Source of the DNA: Escherichia coli
Lineage (GTDB): Bacteria; Pseudomonadota; Gammaproteobacteria; Enterobacterales; Enterobacteriaceae
Length of the DNA: 64,000 nucleotides
Assembly (NCBI RefSeq): GCF_013122565.1
Contig: NZ_CP053258.1
Reading direction: 5' to 3' (one strand)
Shown here: positions 941 to 30,329 of the stretch, piece after piece
Layout of the letters: every line of letters starts with the position of its first letter
Numbering within the stretch: position 1 is the stretch's first letter
Made by a program: the position numbers and the translations under genes
The notes under the pieces: model-generated
The model's database searches: none
Seen by the model: the letters and a program-made list of their open reading frames with translations, nothing else
What the model was told of the DNA's origin: nothing

Positions 941-3043
941 ATGAAGATTTTTTCCGTCCGACAGACCGTTTTGCCCGCACTGCTTGTCCTTTCACCCGTT
1001 GTTTTTGCCGCTGATGAACAGACCATGATTGTCAGTGCCGCACCGCAGATGGTTTCCGAGCTGGATACCCCAGCAGCCGTGAGCGTGGTGGATGGCGAGG
1101 AGATGCGCCTGGCAACACCGCGCATTAACTTGTCTGAATCACTGACCAGCGTGCCTGGTTTGCAGGTACAAAACCGGCAGAACTATGCGCAAGATTTACA
1201 GCTGTCGATTCGCGGATTTGGCTCCCGCTCCACTTATGGAATTCGCGGTATTCGCCTGTATGTGGACGGTATTCCCGCTACCATGCCCGACGGACAAGGG
1301 CAGACATCCAATATCGATTTAAGCAGTGTGCAAAATGTGGAAGCGCTGCGTGGTCCCTTCTCTGCCCTGTATGGCAACGCGTCTGGCGGTGTAATGAATG
1401 TCACCACCCAGACCGGACAACAGCCACCAACCATTGAAGCCAGTAGTTACTACGGCAGTTTTGGCAGCTGGCGCTATGGGCTGAAAGCAACGGGCGCAAC
1501 GGGCGACGGCACACAGCCCGGCGATGTCGATTACACCGTCTCAACCACGCGTTTTACGACCCACGGCTATCGTGACCATAGTGGCGCACAGAAAAATTTA
1601 GCCAATGCCAAACTGGGCGTACGCATTGATGAAGCCAGCAAATTAAGCCTGATTTTCAATAGCGTGGATATCAAAGCAGATGACCCAGGTGGATTAACCG
1701 AAGCAGAATGGAAGGCGAATCCGCAACAAGCGCCACGCGCTGAACAGTACGACACGCGAAAAACCATCAAGCAAACTCAGGCTGGGTTGCACTATGAGCG
1801 TAGCCTGAGCGCACAAGATGATATGAGTGTGATGATGTATGCCGGAGAGCGAGAAACGACCCAGTACCAGTCAATCCCGATGGCCCCCCAACTTAATCCG
1901 TCGCATGCGGGCGGCGTGATTACTCTGCAACGCCATTACCAGGGGATAGACAGTCGCTGGACACACCGCGGCGAGCTGGGCGTTCCGGTCACGTTCACTA
2001 CCGGCCTGAACTACGAAAACATGAGTGAAAACCGCAAGGGCTACAATAACTTCCGCCTGAATAGCGGCATGCCGGAGTACGGGCAAAAAGGTGAGTTGCG
2101 TCGCGACGAACGCAATCTGATGTGGAATGTCGATCCCTATTTACAGACGCAGTGGCAGCTGAGCGAAAAACTGTCGCTGGATGCTGGCGTGCGCTACAGC
2201 TCTGTATGGTTTGATTCCAACGATCATTACGTTACTGCGGGTAACGGCGATGACAGCGGTGATGCCAGTTATCACAAATGGCTACCTGCCGGTTCGTTAA
2301 AATATGCAATGACCGATGCCTGGAATATCTATCTGGCAGCCGGGCGTGGTTTTGAAACGCCGACGATTAATGAGCTGTCTTATCGCGCTGACGGGCAAAG
2401 CGGTATGAACTTTGGTTTAAAACCATCCACCAACGATACAATTGAGATCGGCAGTAAAACGCGTATTGGTGATGGGCTGCTTAGTCTCGCATTGTTCCAG
2501 ACCGACACCGATGATGAAATTGTTGTCGATAGCAGTAGCGGTGGGCGTACGACTTACAAAAATGCCGGAAAGACCCGTCGTCAAGGTGCTGAACTGGCAT
2601 GGGATCAACGTTTCGCGGGAGATTTTCGCATAAACGCGACCTGGACCTGGCTTGATGCGACCTATCGCAGCAATGTGTGCAATGAACAGGATTGTAACGG
2701 TAATCGGATGCCAGGGATCGCCCGTAATATGGGCTTTGCGTCGATAGGTTATGTACCGGAAGATGGCTGGTATGCAGGCACGGAGGCGCGTTATATGGGC
2801 GATATTATGGCAGATGATGAAAATACGGCCAAAGCGCCGTCTTATACTCTCGTCGGCTTATTCACCGGGTATAAATACAATTACCACAATTTAACTGTGG
2901 ATTTATTTGGTCGTGTCGATAATTTATTCGATAAAGAATACGTTGGTTCTGTCATTGTCAATGAGTCAAACGGGCGATATTACGAACCTGCGCCCGGGCG
3001 AAATTATGGTGTCGGCATGAATATTGCGTGGCGATTTGAGTAA
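941..3043 (+). CDS. yncD: TonB-dependent outer membrane receptor YncD
   Basis: 700-aa ORF with signal peptide, plug region and C-terminal aromatic residue (ends WRFE) typical of TonB-dependent transporters; length matches YncD. Confidence 0.9.
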   Translation: MKIFSVRQTVLPALLVLSPVVFAADEQTMIVSAAPQMVSELDTPAAVSVVDGEEMRLATPRINLSESLTSVPGLQVQNRQNYAQDLQLSIRGFGSRSTYGIRGIRLYVDGIPATMPDGQGQTSNIDLSSVQNVEALRGPFSALYGNASGGVMNVTTQTGQQPPTIEASSYYGSFGSWRYGLKATGATGDGTQPGDVDYTVSTTRFTTHGYRDHSGAQKNLANAKLGVRIDEASKLSLIFNSVDIKADDPGGLTEAEWKANPQQAPRAEQYDTRKTIKQTQAGLHYERSLSAQDDMSVMMYAGERETTQYQSIPMAPQLNPSHAGGVITLQRHYQGIDSRWTHRGELGVPVTFTTGLNYENMSENRKGYNNFRLNSGMPEYGQKGELRRDERNLMWNVDPYLQTQWQLSEKLSLDAGVRYSSVWFDSNDHYVTAGNGDDSGDASYHKWLPAGSLKYAMTDAWNIYLAAGRGFETPTINELSYRADGQSGMNFGLKPSTNDTIEIGSKTRIGDGLLSLALFQTDTDDEIVVDSSSGGRTTYKNAGKTRRQGAELAWDQRFAGDFRINATWTWLDATYRSNVCNEQDCNGNRMPGIARNMGFASIGYVPEDGWYAGTEARYMGDIMADDENTAKAPSYTLVGLFTGYKYNYHNLTVDLFGRVDNLFDKEYVGSVIVNESNGRYYEPAPGRNYGVGMNIAWRFE

Positions 3044-3051
3044 TTACCTTG

Positions 3052-3073
3052 ATGCCCGGTATTTGCCGGGCAT
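3052..3073. terminator. Hairpin between convergent yncD and mcbR, probable bidirectional terminator
   Basis: Inverted repeat atgcccgg / ccgggcat with a 6-nt loop immediately after the yncD stop and before the mcbR stop. Confidence 0.5.
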
Positions 3074-3078
3074 TTACC

Positions 3079-3744
3079 TTAACGATTGTATTGCTGGTAT
3101 AGAATAGCAATATTTTGTTGCATAATTTCAGCAAGACAATGTCTGCATCCCTCTTTGTCTTTTGCTTTTAGCGCGGCGAGTAATAGATGATAGTTTTCTA
3201 TACGCTCCCGTAATTCCGCTGGATTAATCGCTTCATAGAGATAATGTAAACCAGGTCCCATCCTGACCCACAGTTGCTCAATCATCTCACACAGAATGGG
3301 CATATTTGAACGATGATAAATTGCTAAGCGAAATAGCCTGTTCGCATTAATGATTCGTTCCATGTCGCCCTTTTCTTGCGCCTGCTGTAATTTCTCAAGC
3401 AATTCCTGAAGTTCCTCCAGGTCTGGCGGGGTGAGGTTTTCAACAGCCAGAGTAACTGCCATTAATTCCAGTTCGTAGCGGATCCGATTGATTTCGTCTA
3501 ATTGACATTTCCCCACTTCCGGAACTGTAAATGCTTGCGCTGGTGCGACAGAAAGCGCATTCACCGAAACCAGACGTAATAATGCTTCACGCACAGGTGT
3601 AATACTCATACCTAATTGCTCCGCCAGATTTTTAGTAATCAGGCGTGCGCCAGGTTTTAGTGCGCCAATACTAAGCTGATGTTTCAGGTCGTTCTCAACC
3701 TGCAGAGTCAAACTGACATGTTTCATTTTTCCCGTTCCAGGCAT
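3079..3744 (-). CDS. mcbR: GntR/FadR-family transcriptional regulator McbR (YncC)
   Basis: ORF 3079..3801 trimmed to the internal MPGTGKMKH start to give the 221 aa I recall; N-terminal HTH, FadR-like C-terminus. Confidence 0.8.
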   Translation of the reverse strand: MPGTGKMKHVSLTLQVENDLKHQLSIGALKPGARLITKNLAEQLGMSITPVREALLRLVSVNALSVAPAQAFTVPEVGKCQLDEINRIRYELELMAVTLAVENLTPPDLEELQELLEKLQQAQEKGDMERIINANRLFRLAIYHRSNMPILCEMIEQLWVRMGPGLHYLYEAINPAELRERIENYHLLLAALKAKDKEGCRHCLAEIMQQNIAILYQQYNR

Positions 3745-5678: not shown

Positions 5679-6124
5679 ATCAGTCGCTCACCCTTGCCTT
5701 TTTGATTGCCGCCGGAATTGGTCTGGTAGTCCAGAACACGCTGATGGTGCGCATCACCCAGACCTCCTCTACCATTCTCATCGCCATGTTGCTGAACTCA
5801 CTGGTGGGGATTGTGCTCTTTGTTTCTATTTTATGGTTTAAACAAGGTATGGCGGGGTTTGGCGAACTGGTGTCCAGCGTGCGCTGGTGGACACTTATAC
5901 CTGGCTTGCTGGGATCGTTTTTTGTCTTCGCCAGTATCAGCGGATATCAGAATGTGGGAGCGGCGACAACTATTGCAGTACTGGTCGCCAGCCAGCTGAT
6001 TGGCGGTCTGGTGCTGGATATCTTCCGCAGTCATGGCGTACCACTACGGGCGTTGTTCGGCCCAATTTGTGGCGCAATTTTACTTGTGGTTGGCGCCTGG
6101 CTGGTGGCCAGACGCTCATTTTAA
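5675..6124 (+). CDS. ydcZ: Inner membrane protein YdcZ (DMT-like, DUF606)
   Basis: 149-aa strongly hydrophobic ORF; its start overlaps the mnaT stop by 4 nt (ATGA), suggesting translational coupling. Confidence 0.85.
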   Translation: MNQSLTLAFLIAAGIGLVVQNTLMVRITQTSSTILIAMLLNSLVGIVLFVSILWFKQGMAGFGELVSSVRWWTLIPGLLGSFFVFASISGYQNVGAATTIAVLVASQLIGGLVLDIFRSHGVPLRALFGPICGAILLVVGAWLVARRSF

Positions 6125-6358
6125 TCACAGGATGGTGCCGCCTTTGGTTAACTGTTCGTGGCGCGCTTCCATATCTTCTTTATGCTTGCGACCGTGATGG
6201 GCGATCGCTGTGCGCAGACGTTGCTGCTGGGTGTAGCGATCTTCCCGACTTAACTCCGCGTCATCGCTCAGGGCGATTAATAATTCGTTCATATGGGCAA
6301 TGACGCTCTCTTCAATCGCGGCATCCACGCGCGCGATGACTTCATCCAGATGCGACAT
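6125..6358 (-). CDS. ydcY: Small uncharacterised protein YdcY
   Basis: 77-aa ORF MSHLDEVIARVDAAIEESVIAHMNELLIALSDDAELSREDRYTQQQRLRTAIAHH...; size and position match ydcY. Confidence 0.8.
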   Translation of the reverse strand: MSHLDEVIARVDAAIEESVIAHMNELLIALSDDAELSREDRYTQQQRLRTAIAHHGRKHKEDMEARHEQLTKGGTIL

Positions 6359-6443
6359 ACTTTCTCCTTAGCCACTTGTGAAATTTATCGATTCATCCAA
6401 ATGATATAAGTCTGCGTGGTGCCGTCAAGCCAGTGAGTAAGAT

Positions 6444-6617
6444 TTAAAACAGTGAAAACAACAGCGCCACCGGGAAACTCATCGGCCATGTTGCCCCCAC
6501 CAGAAAGGCGCTTAAGAAACGGATGCGTTTCTTATCGTGAGAAAGAAACCAGGTGATAAGAAATGCGATTGCTGCCATAACCGCATAAAAAACAAGCATG
6601 TGTTGATAGAGAGACAT
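6444..6617 (-). CDS. ortT: Orphan membrane toxin OrtT (YdcX), 57 aa, TisB/GhoT-like
   Basis: ORF 6444..6692 trimmed to MSLYQHMLVFYAVMAAIAFLITWFLSHDKKRIRFLSAFLVGATWPMSFPVALLFSLF; two predicted transmembrane helices. Confidence 0.75.
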   Translation of the reverse strand: MSLYQHMLVFYAVMAAIAFLITWFLSHDKKRIRFLSAFLVGATWPMSFPVALLFSLF

Positions 6618-6811
6618 GTACGGGCGTCCAGCCAGATGAATAAAACGCGCGCAAATATGCGTCATTTTTTGACATGCATCAAGTTTTTTCACCAGTTTGA
6701 GAAAAAATCATCAAACAGCAACTTGCCCTTATCCATCTTCAGAATGAGTATTATTGCGGATTTTCTTAACCCGTACTATACACATAGGGGCAATGATAAA
6801 AGGTGGCAAAA

Positions 6812-6907
6812 ATGAATGTTTCCAGTAGAACTGTAGTACTGATAAATGTCTTTGCTGCTGTTGGTTTGTTTACTCTTATCTCTATGAGATTTGGCTGGTT
6901 TATTTGA
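6812..6907 (+). CDS. yncL: Small membrane protein YncL (31 aa)
   Basis: Not in the ORF track (below the size cut-off). aggtgg Shine-Dalgarno 7 nt upstream of ATG; hand translation MNVSSRTVVLINVFAAVGLFTLISMRFGWFI then stop, with one hydrophobic helix. Confidence 0.7.
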   Translation: MNVSSRTVVLINVFAAVGLFTLISMRFGWFI

Positions 6908-6929
6908 TGTAGTGATTTTGCACGCAGCA

Positions 6930-6964
6930 CGTACTGTCAGAGAAAACAACTCTCTGACAGTACG
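6930..6964. terminator. Perfect 13-bp-stem hairpin between convergent yncL and patD, probable bidirectional terminator
   Basis: cgtactgtcagag (6930..6942), 9-nt loop, ctctgacagtacg (6952..6964); sits between the yncL stop (6907) and the patD stop (7004). Confidence 0.6.
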
Positions 6965-7003
6965 TAAGATCATCTCATACTCTTACGATCTGCAATATTA
7001 TCC

Positions 7004-8428
7004 TTAATGTTTAACCATGACGTGGCGGACGACGGTGTAATCCTCCAGCCCATAAAGTGACATATCCTTGCCGTAACCAGAAAGTTTCTGCCCACCGTGC
7101 GGCATTTCACTTACCAGCATGAAATGGGTATTGACCCAGGTACAACCATATTGCAGCCGTGCGCTGACGCGATGCGCCCTGCCCACATCTTTCGTCCATA
7201 CCGAAGATGCAAGTCCGTACTGGCTGTCATTCGCCCAGTTTACCACCTGTTCTTCGTTGTCGAAGAGCGTAACACTCACTACTGGACCAAATACCTCTTT
7301 TTGCACGATGGCATCGTCCTGTAATGCGCCAGCCAGCAGCGTCGGCGCATAGTAATAGCCATTACCCTTGCGCTTTTCACCGCCAGTGATCACTTTGATG
7401 TGCCCTGTCGCTTTCGCCTCTTCTACCGCTTTGCTAACGCGTTCGAGATGCGCCAGCGAGCTTAAAGGTCCAAGCTCCGTAGACTCGTCATCCGGCGCAC
7501 CAGATTTTAACGTTGCCACTGCAGCACCGAGTTTTTCCACCAGCGTATCGTAAATGCCTTTTTGCGCGTAGATCCGACAAGCCGCAGTACAATCCTGTCC
7601 GGCATTGTAATAGCCAAATGTACGTACACCTTCGACCACTGCTTCAATATCCGCATCATCAAAAACAATCACTGGCGCTTTGCCACCAAGTTCCATATGA
7701 GTTCGCTTAATGGACGGCGCGGTATGGCTGATGATGTGCTCGCCGGTGGCGATAGAGCCCGTCAGCGACGCCATCCGCACTTTGGGATGACCGGTCAGCG
7801 GATCGCCCACCGTTTTGCCTCTGCCAAACAGTACGTTAATCACGCCTGCCGGGAAGATATCTTTCGCCAGCTCTGCCAACTTCAACGCGGTCAGCGGGGT
7901 AATTTCTGATGGTTTAAGCACTACGCAGTTCCCTGCCGCCAGCGCCGGAGCCAATTTCCACGCTGCCATCATCAGCGGATAATTCCACGGTGCGATCGAA
8001 GCCACGACCCCCAATGGATCGCGACGGATCATCGAAGTATGACCTTCAAGATATTCACCTGCCGCCAGACCATTCAGACAGCGCGCCGCACCAGCGAAAA
8101 AGCGAAAAACATCGACAATCGCCGGGATTTCATCATTGAATGCACTATGCAGCGGTTTGCCACAATTACGGGATTCCAGTTCGGCAAAAACCTGACCATT
8201 TTCTTCGATAACATCCGCCAGTTTCAGCAGGCATTCCGCACGCGCTTTCGGCGTGGTTTGCCCCCATTCGGCAAATGCTGCATCTGCCGCGCGCACAGCA
8301 GCATCCACCTGCTCTACGGATGCCTCGGCAATCTCCAGTAAAACGTCCCCCGTTGCCGGATTATAAACAGGCTGTTTTTCCCCTTCGCCGCTAACCAGTT
8401 CTCCGTTAATCAGTAACTTATGTTGCAT
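7004..8428 (-). CDS. patD: Gamma-aminobutyraldehyde dehydrogenase (NAD-dependent aldehyde dehydrogenase)
   Basis: 474-aa ORF with aldehyde dehydrogenase motifs (ELGGKAP, catalytic-Cys region [11 protein letters not shown]); last gene of the ydcSTUV-patD cluster. Confidence 0.9.
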
Positions 8429-14081: not shown

Positions 14082-14498
<417 letters not shown>

Positions 14499-14543
14499 AA
14501 TTTCGACTGTCTCTCGCATGTCATTAACCTTTTTAATTGGCGA

Positions 14544-14720
14544 TTAACTCAAACCGAGTTGTTTCTGGATTGCTTTACGCAATGGTTCTTTAATCTCATC
14601 GCAGGGGTGACGCGGCATGACACTGCGCATCCCATGAAACCTGACTTTCAAATGGTTGCTGCCATTCGCTACATCGACGCCCTGAGATTCGAGCCAACGT
14701 CTGAACTCGCTTTGTTTCAC
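14544..14720 (-). CDS. hicA: HicA mRNA-interferase toxin (58 aa, GTG start)
   Basis: Not in the ORF track. Hand translation of the minus strand from GTG: (M)KQSEFRRWLESQGVDVANGSNHLKVRFHGMRSVMPRHPCDEIKEPLRKAIQKQLGLS then stop. Confidence 0.75.
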   Translation of the reverse strand: MKQSEFRRWLESQGVDVANGSNHLKVRFHGMRSVMPRHPCDEIKEPLRKAIQKQLGLS

Positions 14721-19104: not shown

Positions 19105-19124
19105 GCGCCATCTAACGATGGCGC
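19105..19124. terminator. Hairpin between convergent ydcO and ydcL
   Basis: gcgccatc / gatggcgc stem with a taac loop, preceded by aaaa on the plus strand (a T-run for the minus-strand ydcL transcript). Confidence 0.6.
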
Positions 19125-19132
19125 GTCTGGAA

Positions 19133-19801
19133 CTACTTTTTGTTAACGTCAAACATGGTGGCATCGGTCGCCATGTCATCAATAACTTGTTTAATATTTT
19201 CGAAAGCCATTGGCGTACTTTCGTTATTCAGGTCTTTACCTTCGCCCTGACGAACGACTTTGATAACCGGTTTATTAGTCGCTGCATCAATCAGCTCACC
19301 TTCAAAATACAAGCGAGTATCCATGGTACGGTGGCCTGTAGCCATTTGCGTCCCCGCAACCACTAATGCAACAGGAACCACTTCATAGAATTGCAGCCCT
19401 TCTTTGCTGGTATCTACACCGGTAATGGCCCCACGGAAAATCAGACTACGCGGCCCCGCGGTGGTAACCAGTGGTTTACGCTGCGCTATCGCTTCTTTCA
19501 TTTCGGTGTTGGTATAGTTCAAAATTTTATCCAGAACTTTCTGCCCTACCTGGGTCGAAGGTTTCGGTACCGGATAATAAGTGATTGGGTTCCAGACGAT
19601 GCTGTCATATTTGCTTTGATCAAAACTCGGGTCTACCCAACGTAAAACCGGTTTACCTGTAGCCGAGGTTGTTTCTTTTAAATCAGAGTAATTGTTTAAA
19701 AAACCAGAATATTTATCTGGCTGGGTGATTTTAGAGGCACAACCAGACAGAGCCAACAAGCCGCATAAAGCTGCAACTTTCGCAAATGATGTGGTACGCA
19801 T
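19133..19801 (-). CDS. ydcL: Lipoprotein YdcL
   Basis: 222-aa ORF with a lipobox (LLALSGC ASK) after the signal peptide. Confidence 0.85.
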   Translation of the reverse strand: MRTTSFAKVAALCGLLALSGCASKITQPDKYSGFLNNYSDLKETTSATGKPVLRWVDPSFDQSKYDSIVWNPITYYPVPKPSTQVGQKVLDKILNYTNTEMKEAIAQRKPLVTTAGPRSLIFRGAITGVDTSKEGLQFYEVVPVALVVAGTQMATGHRTMDTRLYFEGELIDAATNKPVIKVVRQGEGKDLNNESTPMAFENIKQVIDDMATDATMFDVNKK

Positions 19802-20104
19802 GAATAGTTTCCTGAGATGATTATATTACTTTTTAAGTTATAGCAAAAAGCGCCGCTTCGTGTTGTGGCAAAAAAAGTGTTGGTGAAAATAAAATTTTTT
19901 AGCCCCTTTTCAGACGACATAGTCAATGCCGCAAAAGGGGCTAAGTCAATCATCAGTAGTTAAATTTCAGTAAGTTAAGCTGCTAAAAAACTTCGACTAC
20001 TGTGATTAATTTCACATCCCTTCGATAAAAAATATGCTTACCGAAAAGAAGGACAGTAAACCATCTCAGCGTGGGGAATTTTCACGCGCTTTGTTCTTAC
20101 CGGG

Positions 20105-20698
20105 TCATTTTTTACGTGCCAGCATCGTGGCGAAACGCAGTTTAATACGATTACCGTTGGCGTCGGTGCGGTGCAACTCGCCGACGTCTTCATTGTATTT
20201 CACCATCTCCAAGCCTTCGTAATATCGACGTAATTCTCCCTCTTTGAAGGCAAACGGGAAGCCGACGGTACATGGATAATCAGCGGTATCCATCGCCGCC
20301 ACAATCAGGTTGTAACCGCCAGGTTTAGTGCAACGTTGCATATTGGCAATCAGCCCTGGGATGGTTTTAGCCTCAAGGAACATCAGCACCACAGTCGAAA
20401 GAATAAAATCGTACTGTCCAGCAAATGTGAGGTTATTCAGATCAACGACCCGGGTGTGTAAATTATCCAGATTTTCAATAGATTTAATGCGCTCGACGTT
20501 GGCGATACTCATGGCATTTTTATCCCATGCGTCAACATCATAACCATTGGCTGCCAGGTAAAGACTGTTACGACCATTGCCACAGCCCAGATCCAGCGTT
20601 TTACCCGGTTTAACCACTTTCACCGCTTCCAGTACTTCAGAGTGTGTGCGGGTTAATTCATATTTATCAGTAAAATAGTTTTCGTCACGAATGATCAT
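20105..20698 (-). CDS. tehB: Tellurite resistance SAM-dependent methyltransferase TehB
   Basis: 197-aa ORF with the methyltransferase motif I ([15 protein letters not shown]). Confidence 0.9.
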
Positions 20699-21687
20699 TC
20701 TTTGTCCTCTGCTTTCATTAAAACGGCGCGCTCGGTTCTGACTAACAATTTTCCCTGCATCAGAAGCGCAAAAGTACGGATGAGCAGTATTGCAATAATA
20801 AAATTGGTAAAGATAAACAGCGGCACCGCCAGCGTATGGAAAAATCCATTATCGCTGCCACTCCCCAGATGCAAACCGGTGGTTGCCAGTGCAGATACGC
20901 CGAACGAGAAACTCCAGAATGAAGCATTAAATGGCTGGGAGAGATACCATGGCATCAGACGTAGCATAAACAGCAGTTGCAGCAGTCCATAACCGAAAAG
21001 CATTTTCGCCAGCGTGTCACCCTCGCCGCCGTTGACGCTCAGCCAGGCACTACAGGCCACCAGCGCAGGAGCGAGCTGAATGCCGAGTGATGTCCGCAGT
21101 GCCGTGGGTAATTCTCCCGAACTGCGCAGACGCTGCAAGATCACAGGTTCAAGGCTTAGCCATGAGAAAACGCCTGCGCCTAAAAACACCAGACCGGCGT
21201 CGGTGTAGCCCAACGCACCACAGGCCATTGCGCTGATAAAGTTGTTGGCAACTGTCGGCAGATACAGTCCAGGCGTGGTAGCTTCTTCAGGGTGAGATCC
21301 GCGCCATAATCCCGCAGTTTGCCAGGCGGCATAAGCCAACTGAACCACGACACCAAAACTGAACAGGCACACCGCCAGTGGGCGAAACCACGGAACAAAA
21401 CCAATCGCCACCAGCATCGTCGTTGCCGGAAACAAACTCACAAAACTGCTCAGCACTGGATGGCGAACTTCCGCCAGCACGCTATGCGGAAAGCGTATGA
21501 GTCGGGTAATAAATGCGCTAGTCAATAATCCCCAGATGATCATCGCCAGAATCACCAGCCCATCCCCTAACCAGTGGCTGACCTGCCAAACCTGACTGGC
21601 ATAGCGCCAGGCAAATCCCATCCCTATCGTCCCCAACACAATACCAAAGTAGCCTGCCGGCAAATTGAGCACTTTATCGCTCTGCAT
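20695..21687 (-). CDS. tehA: Tellurite resistance / dicarboxylate-type membrane transporter TehA
   Basis: ORF 20695..21795 trimmed to the [19 protein letters not shown] start (330 aa); polytopic membrane protein; its stop overlaps the tehB start by 4 nt. Confidence 0.85.
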
Positions 21688-29856: not shown

Positions 29857-30121
29857 CGACCAAAAACCTCTTTGCGTCACATTTTTACAACAATTATTGC
29901 AGAGAAGATTAATGCTATTGGAATGAAGAGAGTAACGAATGGCTAAACCGAATGACGAAAAATTCTGGAAAACAGCACGCAATTTCGTGAAGTGATTATT
30001 TTCGTCCCTAAGGAAACCTCATAGGATGCCTGCGGGTGCCTGAGACTTTCTGTTTTCAGGCTAACCGGGAATCAGAAAGACGAAGGCCCCGACCGATATT
30101 TCTATCAACCGAGGCCAACGA

Positions 30122-30329
<208 letters not shown>

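Follow-up and report, generated by a model that had tools for sequence, protein, structure and literature searches.

The orphan toxin gene ortT of Escherichia coli is a conserved core gene with no antitoxin or antisense RNA evident beside it

The closest described relative of OrtT is GhoT, the toxin of the type V system GhoT/GhoS, which shares with it the Pfam family PF10753, a length of 57 residues, two helices, and the lysis and drop in ATP that accompany toxicity. The two proteins are 63% identical, a value that agrees with the 2015 paper on OrtT. Phe38 is common to GhoT and OrtT and is needed for full toxicity (PMC4344625). However, GhoT has GhoS, whereas GhoS fails on OrtT and no ghoS lies adjacent to ortT, either in the DNA analysed here or in six other genera; the phenotypes also differ, that of GhoT appearing with carbenicillin and that of OrtT with trimethoprim/sulfamethoxazole. 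The type I toxins of the HokB/SokB kind resemble OrtT in being small hydrophobic inner-membrane proteins that dissipate membrane energy, but OrtT has two helices rather than one, short spacers, an mRNA without high structure (z = -0.27), no Rfam match and no antisense RNA that we could find. Finally, YncL and YohP are, like OrtT, small, membrane-inserted, stress-induced and without an antitoxin, and their production brings about sublethal depolarisation, nucleoid condensation and a metabolic slow-down (PMC12542507). They are nevertheless unrelated to OrtT in sequence and have one helix and fewer than 50 residues, and over-production of OrtT is lytic and not sublethal.

OrtT was named as an orphan toxin by Islam, Benedik and Wood (2015; PMC4344625). 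Growth is inhibited by IPTG-induced OrtT, and changing the ATG start codon to ACG abolishes this effect, so that the toxic agent is the OrtT protein; the substitution F38R lowers toxicity (PMC4344625). After induction, 99.99% of the cells lysed within 2 h and ATP fell 27-fold, and electron microscopy revealed that the periplasm was enlarged and the nucleoid condensed and that cells had emptied (PMC4344625). The ortT mRNA was raised by serine hydroxamate, mupirocin, trimethoprim, RelA production and heat, and an ortT deletion mutant showed more growth and metabolism than the wild type under trimethoprim and sulfamethoxazole (PMC4344625). All toxicity assays used a His-tagged construct, multicopy and under IPTG control, in two replicates, and toxicity was unrelieved by YdcY, by GhoS, by a clone of the flanking DNA or by a genomic library of ~3x coverage (PMC4344625).

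We have compared with these systems the ortT gene in a 64,000-nucleotide stretch of E. coli DNA (the window; contig NZ_CP053258.1, assembly GCF_013122565.1), the features of which are collected in Table 1. The open reading frame runs from ATG to TAA over 57 codons, and its product is MSLYQHMLVFYAVMAAIAFLITWFLSHDKKRIRFLSAFLVGATWPMSFPVALLFSLF. Hydrophobic stretches at residues ~6-26 and 34-57 are separated by the basic loop HDKKRIR (Kyte-Doolittle), and the GRAVY value is +1.11. The protein thus has the size and topology of the GhoT/OrtT family, namely ~57 residues with a short basic loop between two hydrophobic segments, and two transmembrane segments were also predicted for OrtT in the earlier work (PMC4344625). 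Against PF10753 (Toxin_GhoT_OrtT) it scores 96.9 bits (E 8.3e-28; cut-off 22.1), with residues 4-57 covering profile positions 1-55 of 55, which is a full-length family match, and it is identical to RefSeq protein WP_000061178.1. A first-pass annotation of the window had placed ortT, as a 57-aa two-helix hydrophobic protein, at 6444-6617 beside yncL (31 aa) and ydcY. Its coordinates were exact, the profile match, hydropathy and RefSeq entry all agree with the assignment, and the open reading frames, family matches (NF000537 and DUF2526) and annotation agree with it on the two neighbours.

Table 1. Positions in the window of ortT, its neighbours, the predicted control elements and the other toxin loci.
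Feature	Position	Strand	Basis or remark
ortT (ydcX, b1445), CDS, 57 aa + stop	6444..6617	-	ORF translation, Pfam PF10753, RefSeq annotation
Weak Shine-Dalgarno-like GGAC before the ortT ATG	6626..6629	-	inferred
Weak sense-strand RNA 3' end	6649 (K-12 1517357)	-	Term-seq, PMC7815308
Putative ortT core promoter: -35 TTGATG (6682..6677), 17-nt spacer, -10 CATATT (6659..6654)	6654..6682	-	conservation
GC-rich discriminator TGCGCGCG after the putative ortT -10		-	
FNR-type box TTGATgcatGTCAA, 9/10 versus TTGAT-N4-ATCAA	6669..6682	-	overlaps the -35 of the putative ortT promoter
Sigma-70-like match TTGACG-16-TATCAT in the ortT-ydcY gap	6401..6428	-	consensus scan, 10/12; consensus match only
ydcY, 77 aa, DUF2526	6125..6358	-	Pfam PF10735, E 1e-46
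Hairpin and U-rich run at the ydcZ stop, ydcZ/ydcY junction	6092..6128	+	fold of 6085..6140, -20.2 kcal/mol
yncL, 31 aa, single-helix stress-response membrane protein	6812..6907	+	NCBIfam NF000537 equivalog, E 1.8e-20
yncL terminator hairpin, 13-bp inverted repeat	6930..6964	+	3' end antisense to the patD end
hicAB, type II locus: hicA 14544..14720, hicB 14082..14498	14082..14720	-	ORFs, annotation of matching genomes
mokB 30122..30289 and hokB 30180..30329, type I locus	30034..30329	+	ORFs, annotation, Rfam
Rfam sok match, RF01794, 109.7 bits	30034..30185	+	

The gene in the window is the same as the K-12 gene described in 2015: protein, neighbours, spacers and primers agree, and nothing of substance differs (PMC4344625). 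For example, the 194-bp and 85-bp spacers around ortT are those published for K-12, and the qRT-PCR primers of that study match inside the gene. A 1.1-kb query around ortT found matches in 5415 of the 5426 complete E. coli genomes, in which the annotation reads "orphan toxin OrtT", and the gene order ydcZ, ydcY, ortT, yncL, patD is the same in the window as in the matching genomes, orientation included. With the open reading frame as query, ortT is single-copy and 100% identical to the gene of many strains, and among the matches listed no complete genome exceeds 99.2% identity to the window over the compared 1.1 kb. Between genera, dN/dS is ~0.07-0.14 where it can be computed, with pN at 0.10-0.14 and pS at 0.6-0.9, the synonymous sites being saturated. 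The profile match, the dN/dS values and the near-universal presence in E. coli together establish that this is not a chance reading frame.

The 57-aa form appears to be the correct one. A form of 82 aa from a GTG at 6692 was rejected on the grounds that residue 4 of the shorter form is where the Pfam profile begins, that the ATG is invariant in nine orthologues and that the stretch upstream of it carries the FNR box and indels. Many database entries for OrtT are 73-97 aa long, through upstream in-frame starts (window 6618..6692) that cross the promoter region; these are over-extended calls, i.e. gene-calling artefacts. We also rejected an origin of ortT on a mobile plasmid, as the plasmid matches inspected are large Pantoea plasmids or chromosome-like E. 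coli records.

Beyond E. coli, orthologues are found in Salmonella, Citrobacter, Kosakonia, Buttiauxella, Intestinirhabdus and Pantoea. Of 313 matches in a protein search, the best 120, all at least 81% identical, come from Escherichia, Shigella, Salmonella, Citrobacter, Kosakonia, Buttiauxella and Intestinirhabdus. Phe38 is present in the window's OrtT; its counterpart is V in Citrobacter and I in Buttiauxella, so the position is not invariant. A divergent Escherichia lineage has ortT-ydcY-ydcZ as in the window, and Salmonella, Citrobacter and Intestinirhabdus have yncL-ortT followed by srf virulence-factor genes and not by ydcY. In Buttiauxella, a DUF1508 gene occupies the place where yncL would be. 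Kosakonia carries two tandem genes of the GhoT/OrtT family, of 60 and 57 aa and 86 bp apart (locus 3001..3443), the second of which has a non-ATG start and is more diverged (pN ~0.25-0.3). The Pantoea homologues reside on plasmids of ~500 kb that are predicted to be non-mobilisable. In both Pantoea agglomerans contexts, a conserved gene of ~56 aa follows the GhoT/OrtT gene on the same strand (3279..3449 and 3313..3486); its product has a predicted lipoprotein-type signal (…LLSAC…) and no Pfam match, and it is possible that this gene is a lineage-specific partner or a chance neighbour.

OrtT owes its status as a toxin to multicopy over-expression only, and this raises the question of whether the label is deserved. 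The alternative is that OrtT is a generic small hydrophobic membrane protein, induced by stress, whose toxicity is an effect of over-production, and we hold this to be possible although on balance doubtful. It is favoured by the source of the toxicity data, all of which come from over-expression (PMC4344625), by the behaviour of the unrelated YncL, whose production likewise leads to membrane depolarisation and a condensed nucleoid (PMC12542507), and by the inheritance of ortT as a single-copy core gene, passed on vertically under strong purifying selection, with plasmid copies mostly on the large non-mobilisable plasmids of Pantoea. However, the deletion mutant outgrows the wild type with trimethoprim and sulfamethoxazole, which argues that OrtT at native levels slows growth, and the reduction of toxicity by the single change F38R argues against a purely non-specific hydrophobic overload (PMC4344625). 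The alternative differs from our preferred reading, that of a membrane toxin kept without an antitoxin, mainly in the label, and the two are largely compatible.

The first-pass annotation had also noted that no antitoxin or antisense RNA was evident near ortT, and the searches that we made bear this out, in agreement with the 2015 paper (PMC4344625). At the gathering threshold, Rfam matches in the whole window were limited to MicC, sok and RydC, none of them near ortT, and at E <= 10 the region 6000..7100 gave two chance-level matches (E > 3), to STnc320 (17 bits against 50) and to a plant miRNA. The mini-ORFs at 6537..6815 and 6452..6556 on the plus strand, and at 6385..6489 and 6532..6675 on the minus strand, had no Pfam or NCBIfam match. 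Each of the three frames antisense to ortT contains stops in most of five genera, and none is open in all of them. In the cross-genus comparison, the invariant third codon positions of ortT numbered 8 of 57 and formed no protected block; as there is no run of such positions, there is no sign of an overlapping functional RNA. When folded from 6656 to the stop, the ortT mRNA does no better than its shuffles (z = -0.27), in contrast to the mRNAs of type I toxins.

Published transcript maps point the same way. In the Term-seq data of Adams et al. (2021; PMC7815308), the rows for the neighbourhood, from three conditions, include no 3' end antisense to ortT. No transcription start was found for the ortT locus in the Cappable-seq and Romero 2014 supplements, and ortT goes unmentioned in a preprint on antisense RNAs. 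The evidence against an antisense RNA at ortT is thus negative only, from few growth conditions.

Set against the defined types of toxin-antitoxin system, ortT falls outside each of the three considered. Type V calls for an adjacent endoribonuclease of the GhoS type that cleaves the toxin mRNA; no ghoS-type gene is annotated within 40 kb of ortT in a matching genome, and no GhoS-like neighbour accompanies the ortT orthologues in the eight contexts inspected, which include six other genera. On that account, the lack of an antitoxin seems, from gene context, to be a stable trait of this GhoT/OrtT branch. Type I calls for a cis-encoded small RNA, antisense or divergent, that stops translation of the toxin, of which Rfam, the synonymous sites, Term-seq and the published flank clone give no indication at ortT. 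Type II calls for a toxin-binding protein antitoxin that is co-transcribed, and the sole co-oriented neighbour, ydcY, fails to rescue (PMC4344625) and is non-syntenic in Salmonella and Citrobacter.

Could ortT nevertheless encode the toxin of a type I-like system that has escaped recognition, its translation being held down by a small RNA from the ortT region, antisense or divergent, or by transcription running on from ydcZ? We consider this very improbable. In its favour, the region upstream of the ortT start is conserved, ydcZ converges on ydcY and ortT without a spacer, and a weak hairpin with a T-run on the plus strand (6645..6672) could terminate an antisense transcript over ortT. However, that hairpin has only 4-5 bp, such sites are no commoner than in shuffled sequence, and the T-run is not conserved in Pantoea or Intestinirhabdus; ydcZ ends with its own hairpin and U-run; and the synonymous sites of ortT vary along the whole frame, its mRNA is not unusually structured, and neither an Rfam match nor, in the Term-seq rows for the three conditions, an antisense 3' end lies at the gene. 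Furthermore, toxicity was unreduced by the cloned 772-bp flanking region (PMC4344625), which primer mapping places at 6063..6834 of the window, with 217 bp upstream and 381 bp downstream of ortT.

Among the neighbours, ydcY follows ortT in the window after 85 bp, in the same orientation, and is not adjacent to it in Salmonella, Citrobacter or Intestinirhabdus; it is not an antitoxin and not a conserved partner of ortT. An RNA-seq compendium lists ortT and ydcY as one transcription unit (PMC10392735 supplement). The two genes are probably co-transcribed, which contradicts the statement in the 2015 paper that they do not form an operon (PMC4344625), where one sigma-D promoter was predicted for ydcY. 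On the other side of ydcY, ydcZ abuts it tail to tail at 6124/6125, with zero spacer and one shared hairpin, and the Term-seq rows for this neighbourhood place the 3' end of the ydcY mRNA 37 nt inside ydcZ (K-12 1517918; PMC7815308). Given this end and the zero spacer, the 3' ends of both mRNAs necessarily overlap. The ydcZ hairpin probably limits read-through antisense to ydcY and ortT.

The other neighbour, yncL, is divergent from ortT, and the pair is conserved in Escherichia, Salmonella, Citrobacter and Intestinirhabdus, whereas gene calls place no yncL beside ortT in Kosakonia, Buttiauxella or Pantoea. Cells made to produce YncL have a depolarised membrane and a condensed nucleoid (PMC12542507). 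Since YncL itself depolarises the membrane, it is unlikely to protect against OrtT, and the picture fits one in which both genes encode small membrane effectors of stress. Beyond yncL, the available Term-seq rows include a very strong 3' end at K-12 1517039, at the yncL terminator, that is classed as antisense to patD (PMC7815308); patD and yncL are listed as a convergent "excludon" (PMC12288877), with the patD 3' end at 7004.

These observations also bear on the suggestion that a small protein from next door, either YncL or YdcY at its native stoichiometry, is the true modulator of OrtT, which we judge to be highly unlikely. The conservation of the divergent pair and the probable co-transcription of ortT with ydcY (PMC10392735) are in its favour, and the 772-bp clone of the 2015 study carried only codons 1-8 of yncL, so full YncL was never co-expressed with OrtT there. 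Against this, co-production of YdcY gave no rescue, the genomic library screen yielded no rescuer (PMC4344625), and neither gene is a constant neighbour: ydcY is not adjacent in Salmonella and Citrobacter, and yncL is not called beside ortT in the three genera named above. A protein that depolarises membranes would, moreover, be the opposite of a protective partner (PMC12542507).

If OrtT has no partner, its control may lie in the region upstream, which we aligned for nine ortT genes from seven genera. Conservation of a block at window 6640..6690, on the minus strand, extends from Escherichia to Pantoea. In the stretch before the ATG, two blocks alone are invariant across genera, TTGAT and, 17 nt after TTGATG, GCAT(A)nT, and we infer that TTGATG and CATATT form a putative ortT promoter in which the -35 and -10 elements each match the consensus at four of six positions. 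In seven of the nine orthologues, GGA(G/T/C) precedes the invariant ATG by ~8-12 nt; it is absent in Kosakonia and Buttiauxella. In eight of the nine upstream regions, an FNR-type box, TTGAT-N4-(A/G)TCA(A/C), has conserved half-sites around a variable central 4 nt, and the perfect TTGAT-N4-ATCAA occurs in two of the nine. The motif is not significant by itself (six matches in the window against 3.1 expected); the "ydcX" target of FNR ChIP-chip is, however, exactly this box (Grainger et al., PMC1802558), the centre of which reads GCAT in the window and GCAC in K-12, a one-base difference. The spacer between yncL and ydcX also holds a SELEX peak for the RpoS holoenzyme (Shimada et al., PMC5493296).

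If CATATT is the -10 element, the box is centred at about -28.5, a position that suggests occlusion by FNR rather than class II activation. Class II activation, with the box at -41.5, is not supported, as no -10-like element is conserved at the distance needed. We also rejected, as the main reading of this block, a bidirectional terminator or attenuator: the stem has only 3-5 bp, the T-run is conserved only in part of the Enterobacteriaceae, and terminator-like sites are no commoner than in shuffles. GC-rich discriminators are usually tied to negative stringent control. The one after the putative -10 therefore sits awkwardly with the reported induction of ortT by inducers of the stringent response.

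A sense-strand RNA 3' end lies 32 nt upstream of the ortT start, right after the mini-hairpin CGCAUAUUUGCG, with 848 reads in LB at OD 0.4, a Rho score of 0.52 ("No") and an intrinsic-terminator score of 3.18; this equals the lowest count among the rows consulted (PMC7815308). The end is 1-2 nt upstream of the predicted ortT transcription start, so the transcription that produces it must start further upstream, for example as read-through from patD.

Taken further, the conserved FNR-type box could be an oxygen-responsive operator that switches this membrane-damaging protein off or on with the respiratory state, and yncL-ortT a co-regulated, membrane-depolarising stress module, with transcriptional control in place of an antitoxin. 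We offer this only tentatively and think it rather unlikely to hold as a whole; in the literature that we found, no effect of FNR binding on ortT expression, and no tie of such binding to toxicity, is reported.

The window holds two further toxin loci, hicAB and hokB/mokB, and the first-pass annotation was right to place all three within about 24 kb, the stop codons of ortT and hokB being 23,886 bases apart. Both are widespread, with matches to hicAB in 5382 of the 5426 E. coli genomes (4253 full-length) and to hokB in 5409 (4503 full-length). The Rfam sok match is on the same strand as mokB and hokB, over their leader, and SokB would be expected on the opposite strand. In AR_0061, the closest genome among those listed, hicA is frameshifted (14544..14698 there); in the window it is intact (58 aa). 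AR_0061 also carries an insertion of the IS200/IS605 type (insQ/tnpA) at 19119..20760, and hokB is offset by ~1.7 kb between the two, which suggests that this insertion is absent from the window.

Overall, we consider it very probable that ortT is a single-copy core gene of Escherichia for a two-helix toxin paralogous to GhoT, that it has no antitoxin, and that it is controlled by low, conditional synthesis. OrtT would insert as a helical hairpin, perturb the inner membrane and dissipate the proton-motive force, and the cell would be protected only because, as the sequence suggests, synthesis of OrtT is weak and conditional. Low synthesis would follow from a promoter with four of six matches in each element, a weak ribosome-binding site, the operator-like FNR box and stress induction that depends on sigma factors. 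OrtT may thus slow metabolism as a small membrane protein induced by stress, much as YncL does, and not act as one half of an addiction module.

The interpretation of ortT as an orphan toxin is supported and the observation confirmed. The value of this as a discovery is small: ortT was already known as an annotated E. coli core gene, and its toxicity, membrane target and orphan status were published in 2015. The checks that had been proposed, including toxicity on induced expression, which is on record for the K-12 gene, had also been published then, with the results that the first-pass annotation expected, so the observation is correct and restates a characterised gene (PMC4344625). What ortT does provide is a clear case of a member of a toxin family kept as a core gene without an antitoxin, and it supports the view of small membrane proteins as effectors of stress responses that are controlled at the level of their synthesis.
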